Positions 23,744 through 43,141 of a stretch of 64,000 nucleotides of DNA are shown one piece after another (the stretch's first letter is position 1; the number at the start of each line of letters is the position of its first letter). This stretch comes from Syntrophobacter sp. SbD2 (GTDB taxonomy: Bacteria; Desulfobacterota; Binatia; UBA9968), in assembly GCA_945889495.1 (NCBI GenBank), contig CAMDBU010000003.1, forward strand, positions 6,665-70,664, in the 5' to 3' direction. The position numbers and the translations under genes are program-made. A model generated the notes under the pieces. The model was not told where the DNA came from, made no database searches, and saw nothing but the letters and a program-made list of their open reading frames with translations.

Positions 23744-24703
23744 GTGAAACGACTCACAGGCAATTCCATCCTCAGCGCGCTATTAGTTTTAAGTTTGAAC
23801 GCGCCCGTTGAAGCCCAAGATCAGCGCAAAGTGCGCCTGGCCTACTCGGCCTTTAGCGTGTCGTTTTTGAATCTGTTTGTCGCCCGCGACGCCGGCCTGT
23901 TCAAAAAACATGGTCTGGAGCCGGAGCTGATTCAGATGGCTGGACCGCTGCCGGTGGCGGCGCTGGCCTCGGGCGAGATTGATTATCTAACCGGCTACAC
24001 CACCGGCATTATCGCCACCGGCCAGGGCGCGCCGCTCAAGGGCATCATGATCGCCCTGCGCAAACCGCCTTTCTACGTCGTCGCCGAGCCCAGTATCCAA
24101 CGGATCAACGATCTCGCCGGCAAACGCATCGGCGTCGATCGTATCGGCAGCTTGCAGCACCTGGTGGTCCGGTTGTTAATGCGCGCCAAAGGCGCCGATC
24201 CGGAGAAGGCAATCTTCACTCAGACCGGTTCGGTGTCCAACACCGTCAGCAGCCTCGGCCAGGGCGCGGTGTCGGCCGCGGTGTTGTCCGGGCCGCACAA
24301 CGTCATCATGGGGCAAAAAGGCTTTCGCCAGGTCGGCGCCGCGGACGAGTTGCAAATGCAGTTTCCCACCAGCGGCCTGGTGGTGAACGAGAAACAGTTA
24401 AAGAGCGACAGCGCGCGCATCAAAAACGTTATCCGGGTCATGCTCGACGCTCAAGCTTTCTGCCGTAAAGAAAGAAGCTGGATGGTCGGCTACATCCGCG
24501 ACAAGTGGAAGGTCGAACAAAAAACCGCCGAGACGGTCTACGATCAGTGGTTAAGCATCCTCACCGCCGACGGCAAGATCGCCATCAAGGACATGCAGGA
24601 ATATTTCGACCTCGCCTACAGCCAAAAACAGATCCCCGCACCGGTCAACGTCGCCGCGGTCACCGACTACACCTTAATTGACCAGATATTAGCGGGAAAA
24701 TAA
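23744..24703 (+). CDS. ABC-type substrate-binding protein, NMT1/THI5/SsuA/TauA-like (NitT/TauT family); orphan
   Basis: signal peptide followed by a two-lobe periplasmic binding fold typical of SsuA/ThiY/NMT1-like proteins. Confidence 0.75.
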   Translation: MKRLTGNSILSALLVLSLNAPVEAQDQRKVRLAYSAFSVSFLNLFVARDAGLFKKHGLEPELIQMAGPLPVAALASGEIDYLTGYTTGIIATGQGAPLKGIMIALRKPPFYVVAEPSIQRINDLAGKRIGVDRIGSLQHLVVRLLMRAKGADPEKAIFTQTGSVSNTVSSLGQGAVSAAVLSGPHNVIMGQKGFRQVGAADELQMQFPTSGLVVNEKQLKSDSARIKNVIRVMLDAQAFCRKERSWMVGYIRDKWKVEQKTAETVYDQWLSILTADGKIAIKDMQEYFDLAYSQKQIPAPVNVAAVTDYTLIDQILAGK

Positions 24704-24779
24704 TCATGTTAAGTTGCCAGCAGTCAGCGCGTGGTTGAAACGGAACGCGAGACGCGAGACACAGAACAAGGAGTTATTT

Positions 24780-25451
24780 ATGGTAGACGGCAAAGCACTC
24801 GTCGATTCAGTTAGAAAAGAAATCATCGAGCCAGGCATTCAAAAATTGATGGACACGCAGTACTTCACCGAACTGCGCCAGGGCAAGCTATCGATCAAAA
24901 GAATGCAGGGCTGGGCGATCCAGCATTATCTGCACAACAAGGCGATCTTGAAGTCCTTCGCCCTCGGCATGGTAAAGAACGCCCATGAACCGGTGATGTT
25001 CGACTACTTCATCGAGCAGCTCACCGAAGAGCAGAGCCATCCCGATCTCGCCAAACGCTTCGGCCTGGCCATCGGTTTGAAGGAAGAAGATTTCACCGAG
25101 GCGACCCAGATGTTCGAGTGCCAGATCCACTCGGCGCGCACGGTTTATAACACGTTAATGGGTTACGCGCCGCAGAACCGCGCCTCGGCGCTGACCAGCG
25201 AGAGCATGGTGTGCCGCTACTCGGAAGAGTTTTTGAACGCCGGCCGCAAGCATTACGGCCTGTCGGACCGCGACCTGACTTTTTTCACGGTCCACATGGT
25301 CGCCGACCAGGAGCACACCGCGCGCTCAGCCGAGTTAATCGCCAAGATGGTCAAGACGCCGCGCGAAGAGCGTCTGGTGCGCGAGAGCGCCCAGTACATG
25401 GTGCGCATCAAGCTCGGCAAGTTCGAAGGGCTCTACCGCGAGTACGCCTAG
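24780..25451 (+). CDS. TenA/PqqC-like iron-containing redox enzyme family protein (heme-oxygenase-like fold)
   Basis: …RMQGWAIQHYLHNKAI… resembles the PqqC/TenA helical core; AAGGAG RBS precedes the ATG at 24780. Confidence 0.55.
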   Translation: MVDGKALVDSVRKEIIEPGIQKLMDTQYFTELRQGKLSIKRMQGWAIQHYLHNKAILKSFALGMVKNAHEPVMFDYFIEQLTEEQSHPDLAKRFGLAIGLKEEDFTEATQMFECQIHSARTVYNTLMGYAPQNRASALTSESMVCRYSEEFLNAGRKHYGLSDRDLTFFTVHMVADQEHTARSAELIAKMVKTPREERLVRESAQYMVRIKLGKFEGLYREYA

Positions 25452-25457
25452 ACTGGA

Positions 25458-26468
25458 TTGTTAATGAAAATATTTTGCCTACTCGCTGGCCTCGGCTTGT
25501 TCATCGGTGAAGCCTGGGCGCAGACCGATTTGTCTTCGCTCATCGCCGGCGCGCGTAACGAGAAAGAAGTCGTCTGGTACACCACCACGTCGGCCGGCGA
25601 CAACCAGGCCATCGTCGCCGGCTTCAACAAAAAGTATCCGTTTCTAAAAGTCCAAGTGCTGCGCAGCACCGGCGAGAAGCTGCGCCAGCGCGTCCTGGCG
25701 GAAACCCAGGGCGGGCAGTATTTCTCCGATGTCATGAGCGTTAGCAGCATGGAGATGGGCCTACTCAAGTCGCGCAATCTGCTGCAAGCCTACGACGCGC
25801 CGGAAGCGGAGCACTATCCCGCCAACGCGCGGGACAAGGAAAAAGCTTTCACGGCGATCTACGCGCGCAACTTCGTCATCGGCTACAACACCGCCATGCT
25901 GAGCGACAAAGAGCGGCCGCGCGACTGGCCCGAACTGCTAGCGCCCTTTTGGAAGGGCAAGTTCGCCATGGACGAAGAAGAGTTCGAATGGTTCGGCACG
26001 CTGGTCGACTACTGGGGCCGGGAAAAAGCCGGCAAATTCATTCGCGCTCTCGTCGCCCAGCAACCGCAACTGCGGCGCGGCCATAGTCTGCTCGCCCAGC
26101 TGCTCGCCGCCGGCGAGTTCCACGCCGCCATCGTTTTTCCCTTTGAGATCGAACAGCTCAAACAAAAAGGCGCGCGGGTGGACTGGGCCGCCACCTCCGA
26201 TCCCATCGTTACGTCGATCAATGTCATGGCGCTGTCGGCCAAAGCGCCGCATTCGAATGCCGGCAAGCTGCTGATCAACTACGTGCTGTCCGAAGAAGGC
26301 CAGACCATTATCAGGAATCTTTCCCGCGTGCCGATCCGTCCTGGCGTTAAACCGAGCATCGCCAAGCTCGATCAATCGGCGCTAAAAATCCATTACGTCC
26401 CCGCCGACATGTTCCGCAAAGTCGCCGACTACGAGAAGGAATTCCGCGAACTGTTCTGGAAGAAATAG
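25458..26468 (+). CDS. ABC-type substrate-binding protein, family 1 (Fe3+/FbpA-AfuA-like); orphan
   Basis: signal peptide MLMKIFCLLAGLGLFIGEAWAQ; distant paralogue of the 28704 and 29709 genes. Confidence 0.7.
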   Translation: MLMKIFCLLAGLGLFIGEAWAQTDLSSLIAGARNEKEVVWYTTTSAGDNQAIVAGFNKKYPFLKVQVLRSTGEKLRQRVLAETQGGQYFSDVMSVSSMEMGLLKSRNLLQAYDAPEAEHYPANARDKEKAFTAIYARNFVIGYNTAMLSDKERPRDWPELLAPFWKGKFAMDEEEFEWFGTLVDYWGREKAGKFIRALVAQQPQLRRGHSLLAQLLAAGEFHAAIVFPFEIEQLKQKGARVDWAATSDPIVTSINVMALSAKAPHSNAGKLLINYVLSEEGQTIIRNLSRVPIRPGVKPSIAKLDQSALKIHYVPADMFRKVADYEKEFRELFWKK

Positions 26469-26493
26469 GCGCGACCGGCGGTCGCCCTGGCCG

Positions 26494-27549
26494 CTAGATT
26501 ATCCCGAGCCACAAGAGCCCGGCGGTGCCCGCCATCATCACCAGCCCCAGTGGCACGCCGAGCTTGGCCCATTCGCTGCTTTTGATGTGCAGCGCATGGG
26601 CAGCGATGATGTTGGGGATGTTGCCCGGGATCAGCATGCCGCCGGCGATGAGCAAGCCCAACAGCGCGCTTTTGATCTGCGCTTCGCTTAACGTCGGGCC
26701 GATCTCGGCGGCCGCTAGCGTGGCGTTGTCAAGGATCGCTGAGACCATGTTGACCCAAAACAAAATCTGCGATGGCAAGTTGATAATGTAAGCGTCGATT
26801 AGCGGCTTGAAGCCGGCGCCGAGAAAGATCAGCGCCATGACGAAAATGTAAACCTTGCCGCTTCTGACAAATACCTCGCTGAGTTTTTCTTCCTCTGCTT
26901 CAGCCGCCAGTGACGCCTCGGTGTCTTCAAGTTTTTCGTGCACCAGAAAAATCGCCGCGATACCGAGCACGACGACCGCCGGCACGACATAGGAAGCCAA
27001 CAGGTTAGCTAGATAGAAGAAGCCGGCGTGGATCGGCGGCCCGCGCAGTTTCGACACCGCGATGGTCGACAGCGGCTCGCCCAACGGCGTCAAGGCGGCG
27101 CCCAAGCCGATGGCGAAGCAAGCGATGATCGTCAGATTGATCTCGGCGTGGCGATGGAGCGGCAGGACGGTGATGAACTCCACCAACAACAACGCCGCGA
27201 TGATCGCCGAAATCACGCTGGAGAAAAGCCCCAAGAAGATAATCCCGACGGACACGATCACCGCCAGCGGCACCGTGACTAGCACCCGGCGCATCAGGTG
27301 GTCGAGATAACCGCGCAGGTAGTGAAACAGCACGCCGGCGCCAAGGACGGCAAGCGTGATACTGATCGGCGCGACGAAGCCCTCGTGGATCACTTCGCTG
27401 CTCCAGGCGTTGGACATGGTCGCACTGACCACGCCCATGGCGAACAGGAACGCCTCGAGATTGGCTTCAACCTTCTTATTCAAGAATGGGCCGAGCAGAA
27501 CGACGACGAAGATTAATAACAGACCGATCATTAGCATGGTATTTTCCAT
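26494..27549 (-). CDS. polytopic membrane protein, DUF1646-like predicted cation transporter
   Basis: 351 aa with about 10 TM segments; family call made from recalled sequence pattern only. Confidence 0.4.
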   Translation of the reverse strand: MENTMLMIGLLLIFVVVLLGPFLNKKVEANLEAFLFAMGVVSATMSNAWSSEVIHEGFVAPISITLAVLGAGVLFHYLRGYLDHLMRRVLVTVPLAVIVSVGIIFLGLFSSVISAIIAALLLVEFITVLPLHRHAEINLTIIACFAIGLGAALTPLGEPLSTIAVSKLRGPPIHAGFFYLANLLASYVVPAVVVLGIAAIFLVHEKLEDTEASLAAEAEEEKLSEVFVRSGKVYIFVMALIFLGAGFKPLIDAYIINLPSQILFWVNMVSAILDNATLAAAEIGPTLSEAQIKSALLGLLIAGGMLIPGNIPNIIAAHALHIKSSEWAKLGVPLGLVMMAGTAGLLWLGII

Positions 27550-27669
27550 CCTGGGTTTCTACAACATTCCGGCGTTAACAAGCAATGGCGATGCCGCGGA
27601 GTAAATTAAAGTGGCAATTGGCTTGGGCCATTGGTAATGTAGGGAAAATCCCCGCCGTGGAGGTTTACG

Positions 27670-28659
27670 ATGACTCGTATTCAAGTACGTAATCGAATTG
27701 CCGTGCTGACGCTGTTGACGGCCATGCTCATTACTCGTGCAGCGACTGCCCAAGATTTGACCTTGCGCGCGGTGTACAACGCGCTGAGCGGCGTCATGGC
27801 GCCACTCTGGGTGGCGGCGGACGCCGGGTTGTTCACCAAGCATGGCGTCACCGTCGACGTGAAATACTTGGCCGCGACCTCGGCGGTGCAGGCGATGGTC
27901 GGCGGCGGCGAGGAAGTCGGCTTCGTCGGCAACCAGGGCATCGACGCCAAGATCGAAGGCGCCGATTTGGTCTACATCGCCAGCGGCCTGCCGACCTTCG
28001 TCTTTCAGCTCTACTCCCGGCCCGAGATCAAAACCATCGCCGATCTCAAGGGCAAAGTGATCGCAGTGACTCAACCCGCCGCGTCGACCGACTACGCCAC
28101 CCGCATGCTGCTGCGCAGAAATGGCTTGGACCCGGACAAAGACGTAAAAATTCTCTACGCCCAGGACAGCATCAATGTCATCAATACGGTGATCACCGGC
28201 AACGCCGCCGCGGGCATCAATTCTCATCCCAATGCCTTGAAGCTCAAGGCCGCCGGCATGCGCACGCTGGTCGACATCACCGAGTTGAAGATTCCGTTCC
28301 TATTCACCGGCATGTTGTCGTCGCCCAAAGTCGTGCGCGAAAAGAACGAAGCGCTGACCCGCTACCTGCGCGCGTATATTGAAGCGATGGCGCTGATCCG
28401 GCGCGACAAGGAGATCACCATCAAGTCGATCGGCAAGTTTCTTAAAAGCACCGACCGCGAGGCTTTGGAATCGACCTACGAAGAATACAAAAACGTCTTT
28501 CCGACTACTCCATTGATGACCGCGGCGGAGGTCCAAGCGGTGCTCGACGTTGCCAAGAGTCCCAAGGCGAAATCCATGAAGGCGCAAGACTTCTTCGATA
28601 ACTCGATCGTCCAGAAGATTCAGGCGAGCGGCTTTATCGAGCAAGTGAACAAGAAATAG
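27670..28659 (+). CDS. ABC-type substrate-binding protein, NMT1/SsuA/TauA-like; orphan
   Basis: signal peptide …LITRAATAQ; NMT1-like fold; paralogue of the 23744, 34688 and 36311 genes. Confidence 0.75.
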   Translation: MTRIQVRNRIAVLTLLTAMLITRAATAQDLTLRAVYNALSGVMAPLWVAADAGLFTKHGVTVDVKYLAATSAVQAMVGGGEEVGFVGNQGIDAKIEGADLVYIASGLPTFVFQLYSRPEIKTIADLKGKVIAVTQPAASTDYATRMLLRRNGLDPDKDVKILYAQDSINVINTVITGNAAAGINSHPNALKLKAAGMRTLVDITELKIPFLFTGMLSSPKVVREKNEALTRYLRAYIEAMALIRRDKEITIKSIGKFLKSTDREALESTYEEYKNVFPTTPLMTAAEVQAVLDVAKSPKAKSMKAQDFFDNSIVQKIQASGFIEQVNKK

Positions 28660-28703
28660 CCTGGCGATCGCTGACGATTTTTTACCAAGTTGCGAGGGCG
28701 CTT

Positions 28704-29708
28704 ATGAAAATCGCGGATGTCTGGTGGCTGGTATCGTTGATCATCTTTCCGGCGCTCGGCTTCGCTCAGAGCCAGGAGCTGATAAGTAGAGCCGAGAAAG
28801 AGGGAGAGGTAAATCTCTACGCCACCATGTCGGTGGCCGACTTCGCCTATCTCGCCAAGGCCTTCAAAGAAAAATATCCTCGTATCAACCTGCGTCATAT
28901 CTCCTTGCCTTCGTCGCGCCAAACCGCCCGGGTGATGCAGGAGTTTCGCGCCGGCGGCGTCCAGGCCGATGTCTTGGGTAACAGCCCCGATACGCTGCTC
29001 TACCTCAAACAACAAGGTGTGGTGGGGGCCTATCGATCGCCAGAGACCAAGAACCTATTTCCCGGCGCCTGGGACAACGACGGCTTCTGGTCCGGCATCA
29101 CGACCGATTTGTTGGTCACCGGTTACAATCCGCGCTTGCTATCGAGGGCCGCGGTGCCGAAGAGTTATGACGATTACCTCCGGCCGCAGCTGAAAAGCCA
29201 AATCGCGGTCAATCGCGGCGTGCCCTATCCCTTGACGGGGATGGTCTCCCTGCGCGGCGAAGAACAAGGCGTCGCCTACTTCAAAAAACTCAGCCAGCAG
29301 GATTTGCGCTTGATCGGCGACTTCAACCACATGGTTAACCTGATGGCCGCGGGCGAATATTCCCTCACCGGCTTCATGCAAGTCTCCAAGCTCGATGCCA
29401 TGAAACGCAAAGAAGCGCCGGTGGATTGGGTGGCGTCACCGCAAACCTTGGCGACCATCGCCAGCATCGGCATGGTGAAAAATCCACTCCATCCCGCGGG
29501 CGCCCAGCTATTGATCGATTTTTATCTCTCCGTCGAGGGCCAACGGGCGTTAGCGGCGGCAGGAAAAATTCCCATCAGAAAAGGCGTGAAGAGCCCGTCG
29601 AAAGATATCGATCAAGTGCTGGAGAGCGGCAACCTGCACGTCATCCGCCCCGACGGCGGCTACGACAAGTACATGAAGATTTACAACGAGTATCTGGGAG
29701 TACGGTAG
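28704..29708 (+). CDS. ABC-type substrate-binding protein, family 1 (Fe3+-type); orphan; tandem paralogue A
   Basis: signal peptide …FPALGFAQ; about 85% identical to the gene immediately downstream. Confidence 0.75.
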   Translation: MKIADVWWLVSLIIFPALGFAQSQELISRAEKEGEVNLYATMSVADFAYLAKAFKEKYPRINLRHISLPSSRQTARVMQEFRAGGVQADVLGNSPDTLLYLKQQGVVGAYRSPETKNLFPGAWDNDGFWSGITTDLLVTGYNPRLLSRAAVPKSYDDYLRPQLKSQIAVNRGVPYPLTGMVSLRGEEQGVAYFKKLSQQDLRLIGDFNHMVNLMAAGEYSLTGFMQVSKLDAMKRKEAPVDWVASPQTLATIASIGMVKNPLHPAGAQLLIDFYLSVEGQRALAAAGKIPIRKGVKSPSKDIDQVLESGNLHVIRPDGGYDKYMKIYNEYLGVR

Positions 29709-30722
29709 ATGAGGAAGTTTATTATGACCATGAAAACTCTCGCGCTGTTGGCGCTTTTGTTGCCGTCGCTGGCCTGGGCGCAGTCGGCGGATTTGCTCAG
29801 CCAGGTGAAGAAAGAAGGCGGCGAAATCATTCTCTACACCACCATGACCGTCGGTGACTTCGCCCATTTCGGCAAAGCGTTCAGCGAAAAATATTCCGGC
29901 GTCAATCTGCGCCATGTGTACTTGAGCTCATCGCGCCAGACCGCCCGGGTGATGCAGGAGTTTCGCGCCGGCCGGGTGCAGGGCGATGTCTTGGGCAACA
30001 GTCCCGAGCCGTTGACCTATCTCAAGTCCCAAGGCGTGCTCGGCCAGTATCGCTCGCCGGAGGCGAAGAATTTATTATCCGGCGCCTGGGACCCCGACGG
30101 CTTCTGGTCCGGCATCACGACGGATTTGTTGGTGACTGGATTCAATCCCCGCATGCTGGCGAAGTCGGGGGTGCCGAAGAGCTATGACGACTATTTGCGA
30201 CCGCAGTTCAAAAGCCAGATCGCCGTCAATCGCGGCGTGCCCTACCCGTTGACTGGAATGGTGTCGCTGCGCGGCGACGAGCAAGGTGTGGCCTATTTCA
30301 AGAAACTTAGCCAGCAGGATCTACGCTTGGTCGAAGGCTATAGCCACACCATCAACATGATGGCGGCGGGCGAATACCCACTCACCGGTTTCATGCAGGT
30401 GTCCAAGCTCGAAGCGATGAAACGCAAAGACGCGCCGGTGGATTGGCTGCCGGCATCCCAGCCGTTGGCGACCATCTCGACCATCGCCATGGTAAAAAAT
30501 CCGCTCCATCCGGCCGGCGCCCAGCTGCTGATCGATTTTTATCTCTCCGCCGAAGGACAGCGAGCACTAGCGGCGGCAGGAAAAATCCCGCTGCGCAAAG
30601 GCGTCAGAAGCCTGTCCAAAGACATCGATCAACTGATGGAAGCTAATCCTCATGTCATCCGCGCTGAAGGCGGCTATGATAAGTACATGAAGGTTTTTAA
30701 CGAGTATCTGGGGATTCGGTAG
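29709..30722 (+). CDS. ABC-type substrate-binding protein, family 1 (Fe3+-type); orphan; tandem paralogue B
   Basis: near-identical to 28704-29708 along its whole length; start is 1 nt after the upstream stop. Confidence 0.75.
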   Translation: MRKFIMTMKTLALLALLLPSLAWAQSADLLSQVKKEGGEIILYTTMTVGDFAHFGKAFSEKYSGVNLRHVYLSSSRQTARVMQEFRAGRVQGDVLGNSPEPLTYLKSQGVLGQYRSPEAKNLLSGAWDPDGFWSGITTDLLVTGFNPRMLAKSGVPKSYDDYLRPQFKSQIAVNRGVPYPLTGMVSLRGDEQGVAYFKKLSQQDLRLVEGYSHTINMMAAGEYPLTGFMQVSKLEAMKRKDAPVDWLPASQPLATISTIAMVKNPLHPAGAQLLIDFYLSAEGQRALAAAGKIPLRKGVRSLSKDIDQLMEANPHVIRAEGGYDKYMKVFNEYLGIR

Positions 30723-30814: not shown

Positions 30815-31066
30815 ATGGCAGCTCTGGATTGGTCCAAATGTCCCGCCGTGGAGAGCATCCCCGGAAAAGTTAGCGGCGCCTGGGTTTTCCGTGACACCCG
30901 GCTGCCGGTAGCGACGGTCATTGAGAATCTTGAGGACTTAAGCGTTGACGAAGTGATCGAGCAGTTCGATGTCACCCGGGAACAGATCAAAGCGGTCCTC
31001 GATTTCGTCGCCGAGAGTCTGAAGGCTCCAGCTTCGGCGGCAGCGGACGATGCTCATACTGTTTGA
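30815..31066 (+). CDS. DUF433 domain protein (antitoxin-like partner of DUF5615)
   Basis: 83 aa; …GAWVFRDTRLPVATVIENLEDLSVDEVIEQF… DUF433 core; GGAGGG RBS upstream; local GC is lower than the flanks. Confidence 0.7.
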   Translation: MAALDWSKCPAVESIPGKVSGAWVFRDTRLPVATVIENLEDLSVDEVIEQFDVTREQIKAVLDFVAESLKAPASAAADDAHTV

Positions 31067-31390
31067 CCACGGAACTCCCAAGGGACTGGCCCGCGCCTTC
31101 GCCGGCCACGTAGTGACTACCGCCCAAGCGCGAGGGTAGGACCGGCTAAACAATGGCGCGTTGCTCAACGCCGCGGAGGAAGCGGCCATTGATCTTTTGG
31201 TCACCACCGACCGGAGAATCCGCTACCAGCAAAATCTAGGCGGCAGGAAAATCGCCCTGGTGATTTTGACCGGCACTACGAAATGGTCACAGGTCAAATT
31301 GCATATAGAACAGATCGCCGCCGTAGTGAACGCAGCTACACCTGGCAGTTACAGTGAAATAGAAATACCCTTCGGAGCCGCTATTTTTTC
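31049..31390 (+). pseudogene. DUF5615 (PIN-like toxin) gene disrupted by an in-frame TAG
   Basis: the ATG at 31049 overlaps the DUF433 stop; translation MLILFDHGTPKGLARAFAGHVVTTAQARG*DRLNNGALLNAAEEAAIDLLVTTDRRIRYQQNLGGRKIALVIL… matches the DUF5615 pattern, with the TAG at 31136-31138 where a Trp codon (TGG) is expected; no proper stop follows before the ORF runs into the convergent SBP gene. Confidence 0.6.
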
Positions 31391-32409
31391 GCCGCCAACA
31401 CCTCCCGATAAAACCCACTCTTCTCCAACCGCTGCCAGGGCGCGTCGTCGACTACGTCTTCGACTTTCACGGTTTTCACTTTGGGATTCGATAGGGCCAG
31501 GAAGCGCGCCATGTTTTGAATGCCGGGAATCGTCGGCTTGATATCGAGGTTGTACAACCATTGCAGCGCGGCGTAGCCGATTTCGGCGTCCTGGGCGCTT
31601 TTCAGGCGCAGGTTTTTGACCAGCGATTTGGTGACGATGTCTTTATTTCCCGGCCGATGAATGAACGCCACGGTATCGATGAAACCGCGCATCAGCGAGT
31701 CGATGACTTGGGGATTTTGCTTCAGATAGCCGCGCCGAGTCGCCGCCGCCAATCCTTGATAGGGAATCGGCGCTTTGCCGAGATCGAGCAACACTGGAAA
31801 ACTTTTTTCCTTGAGCGCGCGGCTGTGGGTGTAGTTTAAATAGGTCGCTTCGATGTTGCCCTGCTCCAGGGACTGCGCCAACACCGGCGAGTCGCCGACG
31901 ACCATGATGGTCATTTTGTCGCGGCTCGGTTCCAATCCTAAATGCTCGATGGCGAGCATCGCCATCGACCAAACCCCGCCGCCGATGCTTTGCACGCCGA
32001 TCCGTTTGCCTTTCAAATCTTCGGCGCCGCGAATGCTCGTGCCGGCGATGAAATCGCCGTCGGCTTTATTGACGATGCCGGCGAAGAAGGCGACGTCCAA
32101 TCCGCTGGTCGCCGCGCTGACCACCGAGCCGGGAATCGTGTAGGCGACTTGGATGTCGCCCGAGACCAACGCCGCCATGGTTTGCGGCCCGCTGCGAATA
32201 TTGATGACCTCGACGTTGACGCCATGCTTGCGAAACAACCCTTGTTCGGCGCCGAGCCAGAGCGCGACGACTTTTTCGCTGAAGGCGCCATGGGCGATAC
32301 GGACTAAAGGCAACTCGGCGGCTTGGCTGGGCGCGCCGATTGCCATGAACAGCAAGCAACCGCGCGCTAGCAAGAAAAACTTTCGGGACGGTAATCGGAT
32401 CGATTTCAT
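31381..32409 (-). CDS. ABC-type substrate-binding protein, NMT1/SsuA/TauA-like; orphan
   Basis: signal peptide …FMAIGAPSQAAE; NMT1-like fold. Confidence 0.75.
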   Translation of the reverse strand: MKSIRLPSRKFFLLARGCLLFMAIGAPSQAAELPLVRIAHGAFSEKVVALWLGAEQGLFRKHGVNVEVINIRSGPQTMAALVSGDIQVAYTIPGSVVSAATSGLDVAFFAGIVNKADGDFIAGTSIRGAEDLKGKRIGVQSIGGGVWSMAMLAIEHLGLEPSRDKMTIMVVGDSPVLAQSLEQGNIEATYLNYTHSRALKEKSFPVLLDLGKAPIPYQGLAAATRRGYLKQNPQVIDSLMRGFIDTVAFIHRPGNKDIVTKSLVKNLRLKSAQDAEIGYAALQWLYNLDIKPTIPGIQNMARFLALSNPKVKTVKVEDVVDDAPWQRLEKSGFYREVLAAKK

Positions 32410-32444
32410 TGAACGAAACCTCCTTACCTGTCGGTCGAACGATA

Positions 32445-33428
32445 TTATTGCGCTTTGTTCAGCTCCGCGAAAAACCCGCTCCTATCCAGCTCCTGGACGA
32501 AACGGCTGTCGACGAAATCCTCCGGCTTGGCGCTTTTCGCCTTGGGGTTGCGCGCCTCAGTGGCTTTGAGGATGGTCGATAGCCCGGCGAGCGCTGGATA
32601 GGGCGGCAGAATGTAATTCTGCTTGACGATCCAATTGTAACTTTCGTCCAGCAGTTCCTTGTCGTCGTTGCGAAAATATTTCGCCATAACTTTCTTCGCG
32701 AAGTTGGCGTCGCGCTTGGCCAACGCGACCCCTTCGGCCTGGGCCATCAGGAAACGGCGCACGACGGCGCCGTTAGTGCGCAAGTAGCTGCGCGTCGCCA
32801 CCATGCCGTTGAACGGAAAGTTGGCTTCCAGCTTCGACACGTCGAGGATTTCGCGCAGGCCGAGTTTGCGCGCGCGGATGGTCGCTGGCGCGGTCAGCGC
32901 CACCGCTTGAATGCGGTTGGTGTTCAACGCCGACACGCTTTCCGCCGGGCCGCCGGTTTGGAGGATCGCCACATCTTTTTCCGGCTGCAAGCCGAATTTC
33001 GCCACCGCGAAGCGGGCGGCGAAGTCGGAGTTAGCGCCATAGCGCGTCACGCCGATCGCTTTGCCTTTCAAGTCGGCGACGGTCTGAATCTCCGGCCGGC
33101 TGTAGATGTAATAAACGAAGTTTTTAATCAGCGTGGTGATGATGACCAGATCGCCGCCGGCGAGGTTGGCGTCGATCACCGCCGCCGCGCCGATTTGGCT
33201 AAAGGGCATTTCGCCGGCGAGCATGGTGCTGACCACCAGCGAGCTGCCGGACAAGCGCAGCAGCTCCACCGACAAGCCATGCTTCTCGTAAAGCCCGGCA
33301 TCCTTGGCGAACCAGAGCGCCGCTTCGGTGGCGGAGTCCGACGAACGGGCGACGCGAATCTTGTCGAGCTGTTGGGCGTCGGCGAGGTTGGACCAGCAGA
33401 GAATTGCGATTAGCAGTAGCGATTTCAT
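32445..33428 (-). CDS. ABC-type substrate-binding protein, NMT1/SsuA/TauA-like; orphan
   Basis: start taken at MKSLLLIAILCWSNLADAQ (AAGGAG RBS upstream); the 5' extension in the ORF track is treated as spurious. Confidence 0.75.
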   Translation of the reverse strand: MKSLLLIAILCWSNLADAQQLDKIRVARSSDSATEAALWFAKDAGLYEKHGLSVELLRLSGSSLVVSTMLAGEMPFSQIGAAAVIDANLAGGDLVIITTLIKNFVYYIYSRPEIQTVADLKGKAIGVTRYGANSDFAARFAVAKFGLQPEKDVAILQTGGPAESVSALNTNRIQAVALTAPATIRARKLGLREILDVSKLEANFPFNGMVATRSYLRTNGAVVRRFLMAQAEGVALAKRDANFAKKVMAKYFRNDDKELLDESYNWIVKQNYILPPYPALAGLSTILKATEARNPKAKSAKPEDFVDSRFVQELDRSGFFAELNKAQ

Positions 33429-33543
33429 TAATGCTCCTTCGGTTGGCGGTACCATAGGGAAAGGCCGCTGGAGCGTCAAGCCGGGTTGACAGCGGCGCGC
33501 CATCGCAGTTAGTTGGGCCATCATCACAGTTTCGGAGGACTTC

Positions 33544-34617
33544 ATGGCAACCGACACCACCGGCATGACCCGCATCAATCACGAGAAACTGATTCGCTTC
33601 GTCACCCGTTCGTTTGAAAAACTCGGCGTACCGACGAGCGACGCCGAGATCGCGGCAAATGTATTGGTCGCCTCCGACTTGCGCGGCGTCGACACCCACG
33701 GCGTGATTCGTTTCAATCCCAACGCCTGGTACGTCAAATGGCTGCGCGACGGCGTCATGACCGCCAAGCCGAACATTCGCGTGATCACCGAGACCGCGTC
33801 CACGGCGCTCCTCGATGCCGATAACGGTATGGGCTTTGTCGCCGGCCACCGCGCCATGGAGCTAGCGGTCAAGAAAGCCAAACAGACCGGCGTCGGCATC
33901 GTGACAGTTCGCAACAGCCGCCACTACGGCATGTCGGCGTATTATTCCATGCTCGCCTTGCCACACGACATGATCGGCATCGCCATGACCAACGCCAGCC
34001 GCCAAGTGGTGCCGACCTTCGGTCGCGAAGCGCGCTTCGGCACCAACCCGATCTCGTTTGCTATCCCAGCCAAGGACGAACAGCCCTTCGTCCTCGACAT
34101 GGCGACGACGACCGCGGCGGCGGGAAAATTGGAATTAGCGATCCGTCTAGGCAAGCCGGTGCCGACCGGTTGGGCGTTGAACGAAAAAGCCGAAGCGACG
34201 ACGGATCCGAAGATTGCCCAGTCAGCGCGCCGCCTGCTGCCGCTGGGTGGCACGCGCGAGAGCGGCAGTCACAAGGGCTACGGCTTAGGAATTCTCGTGG
34301 AAATTCTCTGCGGCGTGCTCACCGGCACGGTAACGGCACTTAACGCCAACCAAGAACCGCGCGGGCATTTATTTGGCGCTATTGATCCAGCAGCCTTTCG
34401 CCCGGTGGCGGAATTCAAAGCCGACATGGACCGCCTGATCCGCGAACTAAAATCGACCCCGCCCATCGCAGGCGAAAGCCGCGTCTACGTCGCCGGCGAA
34501 ATCGAATTCGAAACCGCCGAGGAGAGAAGCGAACGCGGCATTCCACTGCATAGCTCGGTGCTCAAAGGTTTGCGCGATGTCGGCACCGAGTTGGGCGTGC
34601 CGTATGATTTGGAGTAG
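33544..34617 (+). CDS. Ldh_2 family oxidoreductase (malate/L-lactate/sulfolactate dehydrogenase family)
   Basis: 357 aa; Ldh_2 hallmarks …LRGVDTHGV…GFVAGHRAMELAV…HYGMSAYY…. Confidence 0.8.
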   Translation: MATDTTGMTRINHEKLIRFVTRSFEKLGVPTSDAEIAANVLVASDLRGVDTHGVIRFNPNAWYVKWLRDGVMTAKPNIRVITETASTALLDADNGMGFVAGHRAMELAVKKAKQTGVGIVTVRNSRHYGMSAYYSMLALPHDMIGIAMTNASRQVVPTFGREARFGTNPISFAIPAKDEQPFVLDMATTTAAAGKLELAIRLGKPVPTGWALNEKAEATTDPKIAQSARRLLPLGGTRESGSHKGYGLGILVEILCGVLTGTVTALNANQEPRGHLFGAIDPAAFRPVAEFKADMDRLIRELKSTPPIAGESRVYVAGEIEFETAEERSERGIPLHSSVLKGLRDVGTELGVPYDLE

Positions 34618-34641
34618 AAGAGACTTGCGGGTTCAAGGGAG

Positions 34642-34683
34642 GGCGGGTTTTCCAACCCGCCTGGCGGACTGGAAAGTCCGCCC
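34642..34683. terminator. twin GC hairpins between convergent genes
   Basis: ggcgggtt-ttcc-aacccgcc (34642-34661) and ggcggact-ggaa-agtccgcc (34664-34683), followed by ctcctttatttg on the plus strand. Confidence 0.6.
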
Positions 34684-34687
34684 TCCT

Positions 34688-35662
34688 TTATTTGAACACC
34701 CCCGCCGCCACTAATTCCTTCACAAACCGATCGTCAGCGAACTGATCCCACTTAGCACTCTTCGCTTTGGGATTTTCCGAGGCGGCAAGCACCGCTTCGA
34801 TGGCTTGTTGGTTGGGCGTGGGGATGCGTTCCCAGCCGGGCTCGTTGGTGGCGAGCGATTCCTGCAGCTGGGCGGGGTCGGTGATCTTGGTGTATTTGGA
34901 CATGATTGAAATCGCGTCGGCGCGGTTTTTACGGGCGTAGTCGATGCCTTCGGCGGCGCTGCGAACGAAGCGGCGCACCAGATCCGTATTCTCCTTGATG
35001 AACGAGCGGGTGGTGCCGATGGCGTGCTGGACGAAGGGGATTTTCAGCGCGCCGATATCGACCAGCTCCTTGAAACCCAGGTTGCGCGCGGTGAGCGTGC
35101 TCGGCGCCGAGACGATCGCCGCGTCGATGATGCCTTGCTGCAAGGCGCCCACCAGCGCTGGCAGTTCTTTCAGATAAACGAACTTCACATCGACGTCGGG
35201 CTTCAAGCCGTTTTGCGTCAACACCATGCGGCCGGCGATGTCGGTGGGCGTGCCTTTGTTGGTGGCGCCGATGGTTTTGCCGGCGAGGCTTTTCACGCTC
35301 GTGATCTCCGGCTTGCTGTAGATGGAAAAGACGAAGGTGTTGACCGGATTTAAAATATAAACCGTGTCGGCACCGGCGAGATTGGCTTCGATGATCTGCG
35401 GGCCGGCGGTGGTAAAATGTATTTTGCCGCCGACCAGCGCCTGCACTGCCTGAGTGGTCGGAATATGGGTGAGATCGATGTTGAGGCCGTTTTTCTTAAA
35501 CAGGCCGCGCTCCTGGGCGATCCATAAATAAATTGGATCGGTGGCGATGACGCCGTAGACCGCGGTGGCCTGGAGTAGCGGCGTCTCGGCGGCGCGGCTC
35601 AAGCCGCACAGGAGGAACACCCACAGTAAAGACCAGATCGTTGTGAGCTTGGTTCTTCGCAT
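34688..35662 (-). CDS. ABC-type substrate-binding protein, NMT1/SsuA/TauA-like; orphan
   Basis: signal peptide …LLCGLSRAAE; NMT1-like fold. Confidence 0.75.
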   Translation of the reverse strand: MRRTKLTTIWSLLWVFLLCGLSRAAETPLLQATAVYGVIATDPIYLWIAQERGLFKKNGLNIDLTHIPTTQAVQALVGGKIHFTTAGPQIIEANLAGADTVYILNPVNTFVFSIYSKPEITSVKSLAGKTIGATNKGTPTDIAGRMVLTQNGLKPDVDVKFVYLKELPALVGALQQGIIDAAIVSAPSTLTARNLGFKELVDIGALKIPFVQHAIGTTRSFIKENTDLVRRFVRSAAEGIDYARKNRADAISIMSKYTKITDPAQLQESLATNEPGWERIPTPNQQAIEAVLAASENPKAKSAKWDQFADDRFVKELVAAGVFK

Positions 35663-35697
35663 CGTTTCCTCCCATGCGCTGGAGCGCGCTAGAAAAA

Positions 35698-36294
35698 TTA
35701 ATAACTACCGCGGCTGATGACGATTTCCTTGATCACCACCTCTTTGATTGGCCGATCACGGCCGTCGCGCGGCGCGGCGCCGATGGCGACGACGACTTCT
35801 TGGCCTTTGATCACTTCGCCGAACACGCTATGACGGTTGTCGAGATGGAGTGTCGGCGCCAGGGTGATGAAGAACTGGCTGCCGTTGGTGTTCGGTCCGG
35901 CGTTGGCCATGGACAGAACGCCGCCTTTGGTGTGGCGCAGGTCGGGATGGAATTCATCTTCGAAGCGGTAGCCCGGTCCGCCGGTGCCGTTGCCCAAGGG
36001 ATCGCCGCCCTGGATCATGAAGCCGGGGATGACGCGGTGAAAGATCGTGCCGTTATACAGCGGCTTTTTGACCTTCTCATTGGTCTTGCTGTCGGTCCAT
36101 TCCTTTGTGCCGCTGACCAGGCCGACGAAGTTGGCGACGGTCTTGGGCGCTTTGTCGTCGAACAGCTGAATCACAATGTCGCCCATGCTGGTTTTCATGG
36201 TCGCGTACAGCGGCCCTTTTTTCTCCTGGCTGTTGGCGTTGGCAGTCAATCCGAAAACCGCGCATAGCAGCGCGCCGATCAATAATTTTTTCAC
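35698..36294 (-). CDS. ppiA: peptidyl-prolyl cis-trans isomerase, cyclophilin type (periplasmic)
   Basis: signal peptide; …[15 protein letters not shown]… cyclophilin signature; 198 aa. Confidence 0.9.
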
Positions 36295-36310
36295 TCTTGC
36301 CTCCTGAGAT

Positions 36311-37258
36311 TTATTTCTGATTTAACTCGGCCATCACTTCATTGACGAATCGCAGATCCATATATTCGCGCACCGGCCGCTTCGGTTTGGTATTCAATGC
36401 CACGGCCTGCCACTGGGCCATCAGTTCGACGCCCTTTTCCGTCGGCACCGGCTGCAGCGCTTCCTTGACTAAGTTGTAAGCGTCGACGGAAACTTCCCGC
36501 TCCATGCGCCAGTGCTTCATCATGGTTAGAATCGCGTCTTCGGGATAGTCGCGGGTATGAATCACGCCGCGCACCATGGCGCGCACCATGCGTTTGACGA
36601 ACTGCGGGTTTTCTTTGATGGTCTTACCCGTCGCCGCCAGACCGCTAAAGGAAGTCTCTTTGAAGATGTCGGCCAAGTTAACCAGCCGTTTGAAACCGGC
36701 CTTCAAGGCGACGTAGTCGGCCGGCGGCGCCAACAGCGCGGCTTGAATGATCCCCTGCTGCATGGCGGCGATCTTCGGCTGGCTGCCCGGGATGCTGACA
36801 TACTGCACGTCCTTGTCGGGATTCATCTTGTAAAGTTCCAACAGCGCCTTGGTGCCGGCGAAGGTCGAGCCGCCGAAGCTGACGCCGATTTTCTTGCCCT
36901 TCAGATCGGCGACGGTCTTGATGTCTTGGGTCACCATCATGGAAAAAGTCGGCCGGCCGATTTGCTGGGCCAGGAGAATAATGTCGCTGCCTTCCCAGAT
37001 CGACGGCATCTGCGGGCCGACGGAAAAAATGAAATGAATCTGATTGCCGAGGAGCGCCTGCACCGCGGTGACCGCGTTGCGGACGGAAATTAACTCGGCG
37101 TCCAACCCCTCACGCTTGTAGAAACCTTTTTCCAAGGCGACGAAGGCGGGGAGAAATTGCACGTTGGCCGACGGATAGGCGCCGCGGACGACTTCGCCAC
37201 TGGCAGCGAGCGGGCTGAACAGAATCGCTGCGAGCAGCGCGATAGTGGACAATGCCAT
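36311..37258 (-). CDS. ABC-type substrate-binding protein, NMT1/SsuA/TauA-like; orphan
   Basis: signal peptide [21 protein letters not shown]; NMT1-like fold. Confidence 0.75.
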
Positions 37259-37261
37259 AAA

Positions 37262-38251
37262 CTATTTGCTCTCCCCTTTGAGTTCTTGAATCAACGACAG
37301 ATCGAAATATTTGTACGGCGGGATCTGGCCGAAGGCCGGATCTTCGTAGACCATGGTCTTCAAGACGTTGACGATCGCTTCTTCGGTGGGAAACAGGTCG
37401 GGCCGAGCATCCGCCTTCATGATCCGATAGGAATATTCCAAACTGTCGCGGTCGTCGATTTTCAACACTTGGGACATTACATTGAGCGTCGATTCCTTGT
37501 CGTTCATCATCAGACGGACGGAATCGGCGAAGCCGCGCAGATAATTTTTCACCGTGTCGCGGTTCTTCGCCATGTAGGAGCGCCGAGTAACATTGATGCC
37601 CCAGATATATTCCAGCGGGATCGGCAGCACGGTGAGGCCGAGCTTCTCGGCGTGGCGCCCTTGCAAGGACGAGATCAAGGTTGCGTCGAGGTTGCCCGAG
37701 ACTACCGCGGCCAAGCGCACCGGCGAGCCGCCCGACAACGGCAAGATCTGCACGTCGGTCTTGGGATTTAGGCCGGCTTTAGTCAGCATGAAATTGATAA
37801 ACGCTTCGGCGCGTCCGCCGGCGCCGCTGGAGGCGATCTTTCGGCCTTTTAGTTCTCTAATGTCCTTGATCTTGATCCGGCTGCCGACGCTGTAGGGCGA
37901 GGCGTTGTTCCACGACGCGATGCCCACCGCGTCCAAGCCCTGCTTGCCCAAGTAAAAAAGGCCGGTGGAGCTGGAGGTCAGGAACTGGACGCTGTCGGAC
38001 ATCAGCGCCTGCATGTTCATCTGCTCGTTACGCGTGGCGATCACCTCGACGGTCAGGCCATAGCGCTGAAACACGCCCCGCTTGGCGCCGAGATAAATCG
38101 GCAAGGCGCCGGTGAGCGCGCCCGGAGTAGCGACCCGCAACAGGGTTTGCGCCGCGGCCGGCTGGGCTGCGCAGGCACAGAGCAGCAGTGCGAGCTTAAT
38201 GAACCGAGAATAATCGATCATATCGGGGAAGTGTCGCCTTAAGCTAAACAA
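37262..38251 (-). CDS. ABC-type substrate-binding protein, NMT1/SsuA/TauA-like; orphan
   Basis: signal peptide …LLCACAAQPAAAQ; starts 3 nt after the upstream paralogue ends (tandem pair). Confidence 0.7.
   Translation of the reverse strand: MFSLRRHFPDMIDYSRFIKLALLLCACAAQPAAAQTLLRVATPGALTGALPIYLGAKRGVFQRYGLTVEVIATRNEQMNMQALMSDSVQFLTSSSTGLFYLGKQGLDAVGIASWNNASPYSVGSRIKIKDIRELKGRKIASSGAGGRAEAFINFMLTKAGLNPKTDVQILPLSGGSPVRLAAVVSGNLDATLISSLQGRHAEKLGLTVLPIPLEYIWGINVTRRSYMAKNRDTVKNYLRGFADSVRLMMNDKESTLNVMSQVLKIDDRDSLEYSYRIMKADARPDLFPTEEAIVNVLKTMVYEDPAFGQIPPYKYFDLSLIQELKGESK

Positions 38252-42274: not shown

Positions 42275-43141
<867 letters not shown>

Follow-up and report, generated by a model that had tools for sequence, protein, structure and literature searches.

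An island of approximately 14.5 kb (23744-38251), in the 64-kb window that makes up the whole stretch of DNA analysed here, carries ten genes for secreted substrate-binding proteins (SBPs), seven of the NMT1/THI5 type and three of the SBP_bac_6/8/1 type by Pfam, and at the level of the locus the ratio of SBPs to importer components is 10:0. The host is a soil-dwelling member of Candidatus Binatia, a class with no cultured representative. By analogy, the island is best read as a situation like that of the orphan Bug/TctC proteins, arising here within the NMT1 family.

The census of seven and three, each with its own signal peptide, was made in an earlier, sequence-only reading and is borne out by both profiles and translations. 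PF09084 (NMT1/THI5) matches the seven N-type proteins at 57–92 bits against a gathering cut-off of 20.5, F1, F2 and F3 match SBP_bac_6/8/1/11, and all ten N-termini can be read as Sec signal peptides with an A-x-A type cleavage site (that of N1 ends ...APVEA/QD); a lipobox was sought in the same ten N-termini and none was found. The alternating strands that had been described resolve instead into four operon-like, co-directional runs (N1-HDO-F1, N2-F2-F3, N4-N3 and N7-N6-cyclophilin-N5) with internal gaps of 0–83 bp (3 bp between N7 and N6), and strong hairpins, thought to flank each gene, lie only at run ends: 23643-23673, upstream of N1 with a stem of 13 bp; 26471-26485; and 34663-34682, behind N5. 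Terminator-like sites number 31, against 20.2 ± 5.7 expected. Five other genes are interspersed, encoding an HDO/TenA/CADD-like enzyme (HDO), DUF1646 and DUF433 proteins, an Ldh_2-family dehydrogenase and a periplasmic cyclophilin (Table 1). No sulfonate-catabolic gene (ssuD/E, tauD) adjoins an SBP gene, and a riboswitch search returned no TPP or other riboswitch.

Table 1. Genes of the island and two further genes of the window, with profile scores in bits and, where available, orthologue identity and dN/dS.
Product	Position	Strand	Matches and placement	Identity of orthologues	dN/dS
12-TM protein	8586-10124		No family match
N1, NMT1-type periplasmic SBP	23744-24703	+	Pfam NMT1 75; heads run N1-HDO-F1	78-92% (homologues, among matches listed)
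HDO, cytoplasmic haem-oxygenase-like (TenA/PqqC/CADD-type) enzyme	24714-25451	+	Pfam Haem_oxygenas_2 52, TENA_THI-4 37; NCBIfam CADD family 71, below cut-off 200; between N1 and F1
F1, family-1 (SBP_bac_6/8/1) periplasmic SBP	25458-26468	+	Pfam SBP_bac_6 70
DUF1646 membrane protein	26494-27549	-	Pfam DUF1646 379; ~8 TM by crude hydropathy count; no sequence relative in PDB; divergent from N2, 120-bp gap
N2, NMT1-type SBP	27670-28659	+	Pfam NMT1 60, Phosphonate-bd 45; heads run N2-F2-F3	67-85%	0.13-0.16
F2, family-1 SBP	28704-29708	+	Pfam SBP_bac_6 55
F3, family-1 SBP	29709-30722	+	Pfam SBP_bac_6 62; begins right after F2 stop	77-90%	0.06-0.10
Small DUF433 ORF	30938-31207	-	No NCBIfam match; between F3 and N3 runs; PF04255 gene at equivalent place in L001
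N3, NMT1-type SBP	31381-32409	-	Pfam NMT1 57; second in run N4-N3	70-93%	0.10-0.13
N4, NMT1-type SBP	32445-33428	-	Pfam NMT1 68; first in run N4-N3	85-95%, only in some relatives (L038-L040)
Ldh_2-family dehydrogenase	33544-34617	+	Pfam Ldh_2 400; closest NCBIfam model L-sulfolactate dehydrogenase, 265 against cut-off 500; divergent from N4, convergent with N5	74-94%
N5, NMT1-type SBP	34688-35662	-	Pfam NMT1 75; last in run N7-N6-PPIase-N5	477 homologues at E<=1e-5; 69-100% among the 120 matches listed
Cyclophilin-type peptidyl-prolyl isomerase, periplasmic	35698-36294	-	Pfam Pro_isomerase 172; signal peptide; inside SBP run	70-92%
N6, NMT1-type SBP	36311-37258	-	Pfam NMT1 92	76-87%	0.08-0.10
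N7, NMT1-type SBP	37262-38251	-	Pfam NMT1 69; first in run	72-93%
TauE/SafE protein	49608-50363

Comparison with other Binatia indicates that the island is old, syntenic and under purifying selection, with no recent expansion. Apart from F2 and F3 (74%), its paralogues are 19–35% identical to one another (27–29% between F1 and either F2 or F3), while orthologues of those examined retain 65–95% identity in other Binatia, and dN/dS for the SBP genes tested (0.06–0.16) equals that of the neighbouring ATP-synthase genes atpF and atpF' and of the cyclophilin gene. Such divergence between copies, in an arrangement that is syntenic across Candidatus Binatia, gives no support to a local, lineage-specific expansion confined to this genome. 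F2 and F3 are evidently recent tandem duplicates, the only recent pair among the copies, and most related Binatia loci hold one copy only. Related loci contain up to six SBPs per 21 kb, and there the genes that recur next to the SBP genes encode cytoplasmic catabolic enzymes or further solitary SBPs. The run N1-HDO-F1 (gaps of no more than 83 bp) is kept in L031-L035, HDO following N1 in every one of them, and the SLT/LysM-N1-HDO context is the same in both N1 homologue loci looked up; Ldh_2 adjoins N5 in nearly all related loci that are long enough, and the cyclophilin gene stands ahead of N5 in those that reach upstream of it. Relatives of N4 at 35–50% identity are widespread in metagenomes, with Amidohydro_2, cupin, UbiD, Zn-ADH and SDR genes as recurrent neighbours. 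The partnerless SBP layout thus recurs across the class and, at the level of the locus, is the rule for this clade; because of this, ratios of SBPs to transporters such as that of the window are, at the same level, ordinary for the lineage.

The search for a membrane partner extended from the window to related and metagenomic loci. A Pfam/NCBIfam scan covered every sizeable ORF of the 64 kb outside the rodA-mrdA-mreC-mreB run, the genes for ATP synthase and IleRS and some short ORFs, and matched neither BPD_transp nor ABC_tran, TctA or TctB; a search of every window ORF of at least 80 aa for a Walker-A motif together with LSGGQ was negative; and tblastn with NitT/TauT ATPase and permease found no match in the window and 35 related loci (about 0.57–0.58 Mb). 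Profile, motif and tblastn scans therefore agree with the earlier statement that the 64 kb hold no ABC or TTT membrane partner and no additional TRAP one. Among 80 metagenomic loci with N4 relatives, none has a confirmed ABC importer component, the only ABC_tran matches being two ABC-F proteins and one ABC-2 exporter, and a confirmed importer component is likewise absent from all 16 of these loci that extend 2 kb or more to each side; L116 yields one sub-threshold BPD_transp_1 match (15 bits). The window's TRAP system, with its own Tat-exported DctP, had been taken for its only transporter, but further transporter-like genes, for the DUF1646 protein, a 12-TM protein and a TauE/SafE protein, are present too.

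The AF2 model of N5, the one SBP modelled (pLDDT 92.1, pTM 0.86), has the two-lobe type II periplasmic-binding-protein fold that characterises the NMT1/THI5-like superfamily (PF09084/PF13379). Its top Foldseek matches are 3qsl, 4nmy, TauA, ThiY, SsuA, THI5 and PqqT, with TM 0.67–0.80 and E-values of 1e-17 to 1e-20 for the first five. The model superposes, at TM 0.66–0.79, on SBPs of ABC transporters whose ligands range widely: thiamin (4nmy), taurine (TauA), sulfonates (SsuA), formylaminopyrimidine (ThiY) and PQQ (PqqT). Pfam domain and fold are shared with the binding proteins of NitT/TauT importers (SsuA, TauA, ThiY, NrtA/CmpA, PqqT; TM 0.66–0.76 for N5 against TauA, SsuA, ThiY and PqqT), but the window and related loci lack the permease and ATPase of such systems, and scores fall below the curated NCBIfam cut-offs (TIGR01728, TIGR01729, NF008588, NF008553) by which SsuA/TauA membership was judged. 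N-type proteins reach 57–101 bits (72 for N1) against the SsuA_fam cut-off of 163.5, and at most 40 bits with TauA models whose cut-offs are 304–490, and the functional label 'SsuA/TauA-type' used previously is not supported.

F1-F3 match the same Pfam families as AfuA, P5PA, PhnS and FbpA, and their best PDB sequence matches are 8x1a (an iron(III)-compound SBP), 6wce (the PLP-binding P5PA) and HitA. They are closest to PhnS, yet score only 45–68 bits against cut-offs of 310–395 (F1 with PhnS2, 68 against 393), and neither afuBC, fbpBC nor phnTUV adjoins them. In FbpA and HitA, adjacent tyrosines ligate Fe3+, together with His and Glu. As 'nnyyw' of HitA corresponds to 'gfmqvs' in F3, the iron-ligand tyrosines are missing there; F2 has the same residues as F3, and F1 has 'aaivfpfe' at that place. 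With the di-tyrosine absent from all three, the ferric FbpA/HitA type is rejected and the previous label 'Fe3+-type' is not upheld. Sulfonate, taurine and ferric iron are thus not supported as ligands. Membership of the TctC family is also rejected (PF03401 matches none of the ten SBPs), as is that of the TAXI-type TRAP receptors (TIGR02122, 23–28 bits against 84; PF16868, at most 24 against 27); TAXI-type TRAP receptors adjoin a fused DctQM, whereas DctQ and DctM are separate proteins in the TRAP system of the window.

[quoted passage not shown] Z2-YC6860 carries 434 copies (PMC5994714). The parallel drawn by the sequence-only reading is apt, both being cases of many solitary SBPs with no membrane partner: periplasmic SBP genes far outnumber nearby membrane components (for the island, at locus level), such genes frequently have genes for catabolic enzymes or for other transport functions as neighbours, most of the proteins have no assigned function, and the candidate explanations are the same three, namely a shared translocator, sensing or another role. 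In five metagenomic loci, TctC-type SBPs are even found together with N4 relatives. The island, however, is composed of NMT1/PF09084 and SBP_bac_6 proteins in Binatota, in copies that are ancient, syntenic and strongly constrained, whereas Bug/TctC proteins belong to PF03401, occur in Proteobacteria and are recent lineage-specific duplicates; given this difference in protein family, the expected partner would be an ABC importer, not TctAB. Orphan expansions of NMT1-type SBPs had been thought undescribed, and no paper describing one was found; the Binatota genome paper makes no mention of transporters (PMC8262859).

It is about an even call that the ten SBPs are functional receptors that bind small organic substrates with high affinity and have in common a few ABC translocators whose genes lie at a distance. 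Each protein would recognise a small organic compound of its own, probably an anion, which it would capture with high affinity and pass to one of the few shared translocators encoded elsewhere: a NitT/TauT-type permease and ATPase for the seven NMT1-type SBPs, on the assumption of an SBP-less operon in Binatia, and a PotD/Afu/Phn-type translocator for the three family-1 SBPs. Imported compounds would then feed neighbouring cytoplasmic enzymes, namely the HDO/TenA-like enzyme and Ldh_2 in the window and, at related loci, Amidohydro_2, UbiD, cupin and dehydrogenases. It is this co-transcription-like linkage to cytoplasmic enzymes that favours a transport role. The NMT1-type family can work with ABC translocators, as in Ensifer adhaerens: its homologue, at 29% identity the nearest from a cultured bacterium's sequenced plasmid, belongs to an operon of SBP, ATPase and permease genes with hydantoinase genes beside it. 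According to a passage of PMC3223731 that cites Thomas 2010, it is common for orphan SBPs to use ABC components encoded at a distance; an example is R. palustris RPA2014, an orphan SBP with potHI elsewhere (PMC3223731). The island resembles the systems of Thomas 2010 ('Homes for the orphans') in that SBP genes lie apart from translocator genes, with several SBPs per translocator; in those systems the surplus is one SBP or a few, whereas here there are ten in 14.5 kb and no translocator identified. Two observations count against shared translocators: no cognate translocator was seen in the window, the 35 related loci or the 80 metagenomic loci, and NMT1-type and family-1 SBPs are paired within one run, for which the model has no precedent (N1 with F1 and N2 with F3, repeated in L043, L081, L109 and L113).

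More than 100 related loci have no importer gene adjoining them, which would also suit SBPs with no dedicated translocator. On this reading, which we consider unlikely, the proteins would serve as periplasmic ligand sensors docking to histidine kinases or chemoreceptors, or as sponges or buffers by which an oligotroph keeps scarce substrates in its periplasm. Some orphan TTT SBPs have documented sensory roles (BctC/BctDE, as cited in a passage of PMC5994714), the window encodes a hybrid PAS-GAF histidine kinase 14 kb from the island (52695-55157), and a periplasmic cyclophilin inside an SBP run would suit any abundant periplasmic protein. However, it is catabolic cytoplasmic enzymes that recur beside the SBP genes, and no kinase, chemoreceptor or regulator does so; the kinase of the window has no identified predicted periplasmic SBP-docking domain, and a cytoplasmic enzyme flanked by N1 and F1 in one run is ill-suited to a purely periplasmic role.

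In most related loci examinable there, a membrane protein is the next or next-but-one gene past N2, and N2 with F2 and F3 might use a secondary, ATP-independent carrier of the IT superfamily at the island edge, DUF1646 in the window and a CitMHS-like protein in sister clades, although the prospect is slim. The DUF1646 and N2 genes are divergently oriented in the window and in L009, L013, L016-L018, L025 and L030 (orthologues 79–88% identical), a DUF1646-family gene lies 127 bp from an NMT1 SBP gene in L040, and Pfam-confirmed CitMHS-like genes are co-directional with an adjacent NMT1 SBP gene in L007 and L039 (gaps of 79 and 118 bp); L011 has an ORF of 627 aa for a putative membrane protein 49 bp from N2. 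DUF1646 and the CitMHS-like protein occupy one syntenic slot before msrA (the latter in L007) and have the motif 'SAILDN' in common, and DctM of TRAP and TctA of TTT systems are also IT-superfamily proteins. Against this, L010 has a CitMHS-like gene but no N2, Mrp antiporter genes lie directly at the island edge in L022, and Mrp and Na_Ca_ex genes stand beside the CitMHS-like gene in L012 and L026, which makes the edge genes look like an ion-homeostasis cluster merely abutting the island. Furthermore, N4 relatives have no recurrent membrane neighbour, nothing resembling a small DctQ or TctB subunit was seen, and pairwise comparison of DUF1646 with the CitMHS-like protein gives no significant similarity. 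Slimmer still is the chance that the N2-F3 pair, perhaps with others, involves no ABC transporter at all and delivers its substrate to the adjacent DUF1646/CitMHS-like protein; if true, this would be a third class of binding-protein-dependent secondary transporter beside TRAP and TTT, and would explain the absence of ABC genes near this SBP clade.

That some of the SBPs are periplasmic enzymes is highly improbable: THI5 (HMP-P synthase) and DszB (a desulfinase), of the same structural family, are among the Foldseek matches of the N5 model, but its best matches are true SBPs (3qsl, 4nmy, TauA, ThiY, SsuA), the invariant columns of the seven N paralogues comprise Gly, Pro, Ala, Leu, Ile and one Asp with no common catalytic Cys, His or Lys, and all ten proteins are exported, unlike the known enzymes of this fold, which to our knowledge are cytoplasmic.

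Gene starts and promoter-like sites complete the description of the island. N1 is preceded by a sigma-70-like promoter (11/12 match, 23707-23736), and HDO, which has no signal peptide, probably starts at an ATG near 24780. N4 is called at 327 aa with its start near 33428, the longest ORF, to 33578, overshooting it, and has a promoter-like site at 33479-33451; for N7 the called start is 38221 (319 aa).

Pfam scans place ten periplasmic substrate-binding proteins (SBPs) amongst the sixteen genes of the island at 23744-38251: the seven NMT1-type proteins N1-N7 match PF09084 (NMT1/THI5) at 57–92 bits (gathering score 20.5) and have NMT1_2 as their next-best family, and the three family-1 proteins F1-F3 are assigned to SBP_bac_6/8/1/11. 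In translation, all ten N-termini run from basic through hydrophobic to an A-x-A type signal peptide, and none carries a lipobox. Where the sequence-only reading had pictured single units on alternating strands, each gene with its own flanking hairpin, the genes instead form four co-directional runs: N1-HDO-F1 (+), in which HDO is a haem-oxygenase-like/TenA/CADD-type enzyme; N2-F2-F3 (+; gaps of 44 and 0 bp); N4-N3 (-; gap of 35 bp); and N7-N6-cyclophilin-N5 (-; gaps of 3, 16 and 35 bp). Strong hairpins stand at run ends only (23643-23673, 26471-26485 and 34663-34682), terminator-like sites are mildly enriched (31 observed vs 20.2 +/- 5.7 expected), and a promoter-like site with an 11/12 match lies immediately upstream of N1. 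The longest open reading frame for N4 (32445-33578) extends 150 bp beyond the called start and overlaps the start of the Ldh_2 gene; the true start at 33428 gives a divergent promoter region of 116 bp, with a promoter-like site at 33479-33451 within it. The cyclophilin also precedes N5 in those Binatia loci that reach upstream. NMT1-type and SBP_bac_6 proteins are repeatedly adjacent in one run, both in the window (23744-26468, N1 to F1; 27670-30722, N2 to F2/F3) and side by side in four metagenomic loci (L043, L081, L109, L113), a pairing for which we know of no precedent.

Genes of the island and other features of the window, with amino-acid identity of relatives to the window copy
Feature	Position	Strand	Family or remark	Identity
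N1	23744	+	NMT1/THI5	
HDO, haem-oxygenase-like/TenA/CADD-type enzyme	24714-25451	+	interspersed in island	
F1	25458	+	SBP_bac_6/8/1/11	
DUF1646 membrane protein	26494-27549	-	interspersed in island	
N2	27670	+	NMT1/THI5	67-85%
F2	28704	+	SBP_bac_6/8/1/11	
F3	29709	+	SBP_bac_6/8/1/11	77-90%
DUF433 small ORF			interspersed in island	
N3	31381	-	NMT1/THI5	70-93%
N4	32445	-	NMT1/THI5	
Ldh_2 dehydrogenase	33544-34617	+	interspersed in island	
N5	34688	-	NMT1/THI5	65-87%
Cyclophilin PPIase with signal peptide	35698-36294	-	interspersed in island	
N6	36311	-	NMT1/THI5	76-87%
N7	37262	-	NMT1/THI5	72-93%
atpF			comparison	58-82%
512-aa protein	8586-10124	-	~12 predicted TM helices	
TRAP system	13273-17255	-	DctP, DctQ, DctM	
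ATP synthase cluster	38466-45155	+	atpF'-F-H-A-G-D-C	
UbiD-family decarboxylase	50911-52749	-		
UbiD-family decarboxylase	61955-63541	+		

The observation that no ABC partner is encoded in the 64 kb is borne out by three lines of search. Neither a BPD_transp permease nor an ABC_tran ATPase, TctA or TctB turned up in Pfam and NCBIfam scans of most sizeable open reading frames of the window; a combined Walker-A and LSGGQ motif scan was negative; and so was tblastn with the NitT/TauT ATPase and permease of Ensifer. The same tblastn queries gave no match in the window together with 35 related loci (~0.57 Mb, partly redundant), and the ABC-ATPase motif is absent from 31 related loci. Such ABC importer genes as were seen are of other kinds, either with an SBP of their own (the SBP_bac_5/BPD_transp_1 system of L034) or of the Liv type (L024). 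A metagenome scan with N4 added 80 loci (495 kb in all; identity 35-95%), at which NMT1 SBP genes often lie in clusters of as many as six in 21 kb; no importer component is present at any of the 16 where the matched gene has 2 kb or more on each side. ABC_tran matches over all 80 amount to two ABC-F proteins (L057, L082) and one ABC-2 exporter on the opposite strand (L100), and a BPD_transp_1 match in L116 (1389-2327) reaches just 15 bits, below threshold, in a possibly chimeric open reading frame. Clustering of 284 neighbouring open reading frames revealed recurrent Amidohydro_2, cupin, UbiD, Zn-dependent and short-chain dehydrogenase, peptidase-like, D-Ala-D-Ala-ligase-type ATP-grasp and NamZ proteins, along with two further families of solitary SBP (TctC, ABC_sub_bind), and no recurrent membrane partner. 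Two membrane neighbours occur singly: MFS_3 in L049 and, in L066 (9935-11890), a nine-TM Cons_hypoth698 (YeiH-type) protein 25 bp after an N4-like SBP, the lone possible pairing of an SBP with a secondary carrier. Among sequenced plasmids of cultured bacteria, by contrast, the homologue nearest to N5, from Ensifer adhaerens (29% identity), lies in a textbook SBP-ATPase-permease operon beside hydantoinase genes. The lack of a partner is thus common to the entire clade of these SBPs in Binatia-like soil bacteria rather than peculiar to this locus.

How old is this arrangement? N6 has an exact match on the same contig in ENA soil assemblies and in MAG GCA_947446275.1. An alignment of N5 orthologues, run against the species representatives of GTDB, matched 21 loci, nearly all titled Candidatus Binatia or belonging to MAGs of that group called 'delta proteobacterium', and a protein search with a seven-paralogue profile gave N3 and N6 orthologues from Binatia and nothing else. 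Reciprocal BLAST of all open reading frames in the genomes of the N5 scan delineated a conserved block beside the ATP synthase operon, bactofilin-(N7-N6)-cyclophilin-N5-Ldh_2-(N3)-F3-N2-DUF1646. Conservation extends to the N1-HDO-(F1) run, which in every case stands behind TRAP-GlcDEF-SLT/LysM; what follows the run differs in other genomes, and includes further NMT1 SBPs and Amidohydro_2. N4 occurs in some relatives only (L038-L040), and F2, at 74% identity to F3, is a recent duplicate. As the two blocks are separately syntenic in relatives, the ten-gene island is their juxtaposition, with N4 and F2 added. Identity between paralogues is 19-35%, and dN/dS of the SBP genes against two Binatia clades is 0.06-0.16, with dS near saturation, in the same range as for cyclophilin, bactofilin and the ATP synthase b subunits. 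Judged from synteny and codon constraint, the SBP genes are old, individually maintained and functional rather than the product of a recent local burst; intact reading frames and the low dN/dS rule out pseudogenes or decaying remnants. Four orthologues of island SBPs (P0046, P0145, P0181, P0346; 73-92% identity to the corresponding window protein) come from MAGs labelled Candidatus Limnocylindria/Limnocylindrales or Chloroflexota at NCBI, and one locus titled Verrucomicrobiia (L018) has an N5 match at 68% identity; its full Binatia synteny suggests mis-binning rather than transfer as the source of such labels.

On first reading the proteins had been termed 'SsuA/TauA type' or 'Fe3+ type', and both terms proved to be family names only. 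N1-N7 score 57-101 bits against a cut-off of 163.5 for SsuA_fam and fall far under the TauA cut-offs, whilst the nearest models for F1-F3 are those of PhnS, at 45-68 bits against cut-offs of 310-395, and the iron-ligating di-tyrosine of HitA ('nnyyw') is replaced by 'gfmqvs' in F3/F2 and 'aaivfpfe' in F1. An AlphaFold2 model of N5 (48 input sequences, mean pLDDT 92.1) shows a type II SBP fold as in the NitT/TauT group. Its best Foldseek match in the PDB is 3qsl, an uncharacterised exported protein of Bordetella bronchiseptica (TM 0.79), followed by the thiamin-bound ABC SBP 4nmy, TauA, ThiY, SsuA, the enzyme THI5, the PQQ-binding PqqT, NrtA and CmpA; sequence searches of the PDB led back to these entries, with weak matches only (E 1e-5 to 1e-8). 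As these matches span diverse ligands, the ligand is not readable from family membership. Automated 'sulfonate/taurine/nitrate' or 'Fe3+' transporter calls for such genes in soil metagenomes are unfounded, and inflate the apparent potential for organosulfonate uptake. A link of the ThiY-like or TenA-like genes to thiamin or TPP is also unsupported: at gathering thresholds, no Rfam family, TPP included, matches in the 64 kb.

As to what the ten proteins do, the reading we favour, with about even chances, is that several SBPs share each predicted, distally encoded ABC translocator. Each protein would be a specific high-affinity receptor for one small organic compound, would dock to one of a few translocators encoded elsewhere, and would thereby supply the cytoplasmic enzymes encoded beside it. 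Orphan SBPs with distal translocators have been termed common, and COG0715 proteins bind carboxylates, amino compounds, guanine and thiamine (PMC3223731). That the proteins act in sensing or buffering is unlikely, since the strongest argument available, the linkage of SBP genes to cytoplasmic enzymes, favours transport: HDO is flanked by N1 and F1 in one run, Ldh_2 adjoins N5 nearly always, and members of the clade recur beside Amidohydro_2, UbiD and cupin enzymes, families known in aromatic and organic-acid catabolism.

Less probable still is a secondary-carrier partner, the IT-superfamily-like membrane protein next to N2 (DUF1646 or CitMHS-like). Such a gene is adjacent or next-but-one to N2 in most genomes that can be examined beyond N2; DUF1646 is divergent from N2, the CitMHS-like gene of sister clades runs in the same direction as the NMT1 SBP gene next to it (in L007 and L039, at distances of 79 and 118 bp), and in L011 a putative membrane protein of 627 aa is encoded 49 bp away from N2. 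Against this, L010 has the CitMHS-like gene and no N2, and Mrp and Na/Ca-exchanger genes abut the same island edge in L012, L022 and L026, so the membrane protein may be part of a neighbouring ion-homeostasis cluster. Should the partner prove not to be an ABC system, the classification of transporters would be considerably affected. In some Binatia the place between N2 and msrA is taken by DUF1646 (in L040 at 13371-14429, as in the window) and in others by a CitMHS-like protein of 590-630 aa (L007 15415-17193; L039 15605-17419), which looks like an in-situ non-orthologous replacement; a 'SAILDN' motif is all that the two sequences share, BLASTP between them is not significant, and DUF1646 has no sequence relative in the PDB. 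That some of the SBPs are enzymes with an SBP fold is the least credible reading, and very improbable.

Binding proteins without a partner have long been a puzzle, and most known cases belong to the Bug/TctC family of a few proteobacteria. The closest parallel is found in Bordetella, Cupriavidus, Advenella and Rhodoplanes, where orphan Bug/TctC SBPs are over-represented (PMC5994714); it has in common with the island solitary genes, catabolic linkage, a scarcity or absence of membrane components nearby and the same competing hypotheses. The island differs in phylum, in the age and synteny of its copies and in family, as NMT1 and family-1 SBPs are normally ABC-dependent. The suspicion that such expansions were undescribed for the NMT1 type held up, in that full-text literature searches yielded no such account for NMT1-type SBPs or for Binatia, and the Binatota genome paper makes no mention of transporters. 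The island is real and conserved, and orphan SBPs in general are already familiar; what is added is their occurrence in an ABC-type family and in Binatia. To our knowledge, the transport biology of this globally distributed, uncultured soil lineage is undescribed. Since the copies are few, ancient, syntenic and constrained like housekeeping genes, they offer defined targets for ligand screening, for example N5 with Ldh_2 or N1 with the HDO-like enzyme.

The rest of the window is ordinary chromosome. Most other sizeable open reading frames were scanned against Pfam or NCBIfam, whilst the names given to rodA-mrdA-mreC-mreB, IleRS and the ATP synthase genes come from their translations or from precomputed Pfam calls; further genes encode PpiD, LipB/LipA, an amidase, GlcD/F/E-like oxidase components, an SLT-LysM transglycosylase, bactofilin, a cupin, an EutA-like protein, TauE/SafE, a hybrid histidine kinase and an E2 acyltransferase, amongst others. 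The 512-aa membrane protein has no Pfam or NCBIfam match. The TRAP system is complete, with a Tat-signal DctP, a DctQ of 235 aa and a DctM of unusual length (695 aa, in which three stretches match DctM); it was rejected as partner of the SBPs, having its own DctP and GlcDEF, not SBPs, as conserved neighbour, and it adjoins GlcD/F/E-like genes in other Binatia too (L031, L034). The ATP synthase cluster encodes two b-type subunits and lacks genes for a and c; bactofilin before it and the conserved cupin and EutA-like genes after it keep their synteny across Binatia. Besides the two copies in the window, UbiD genes recur beside N4-like SBPs in metagenomic loci L080, L083, L085 and L090.
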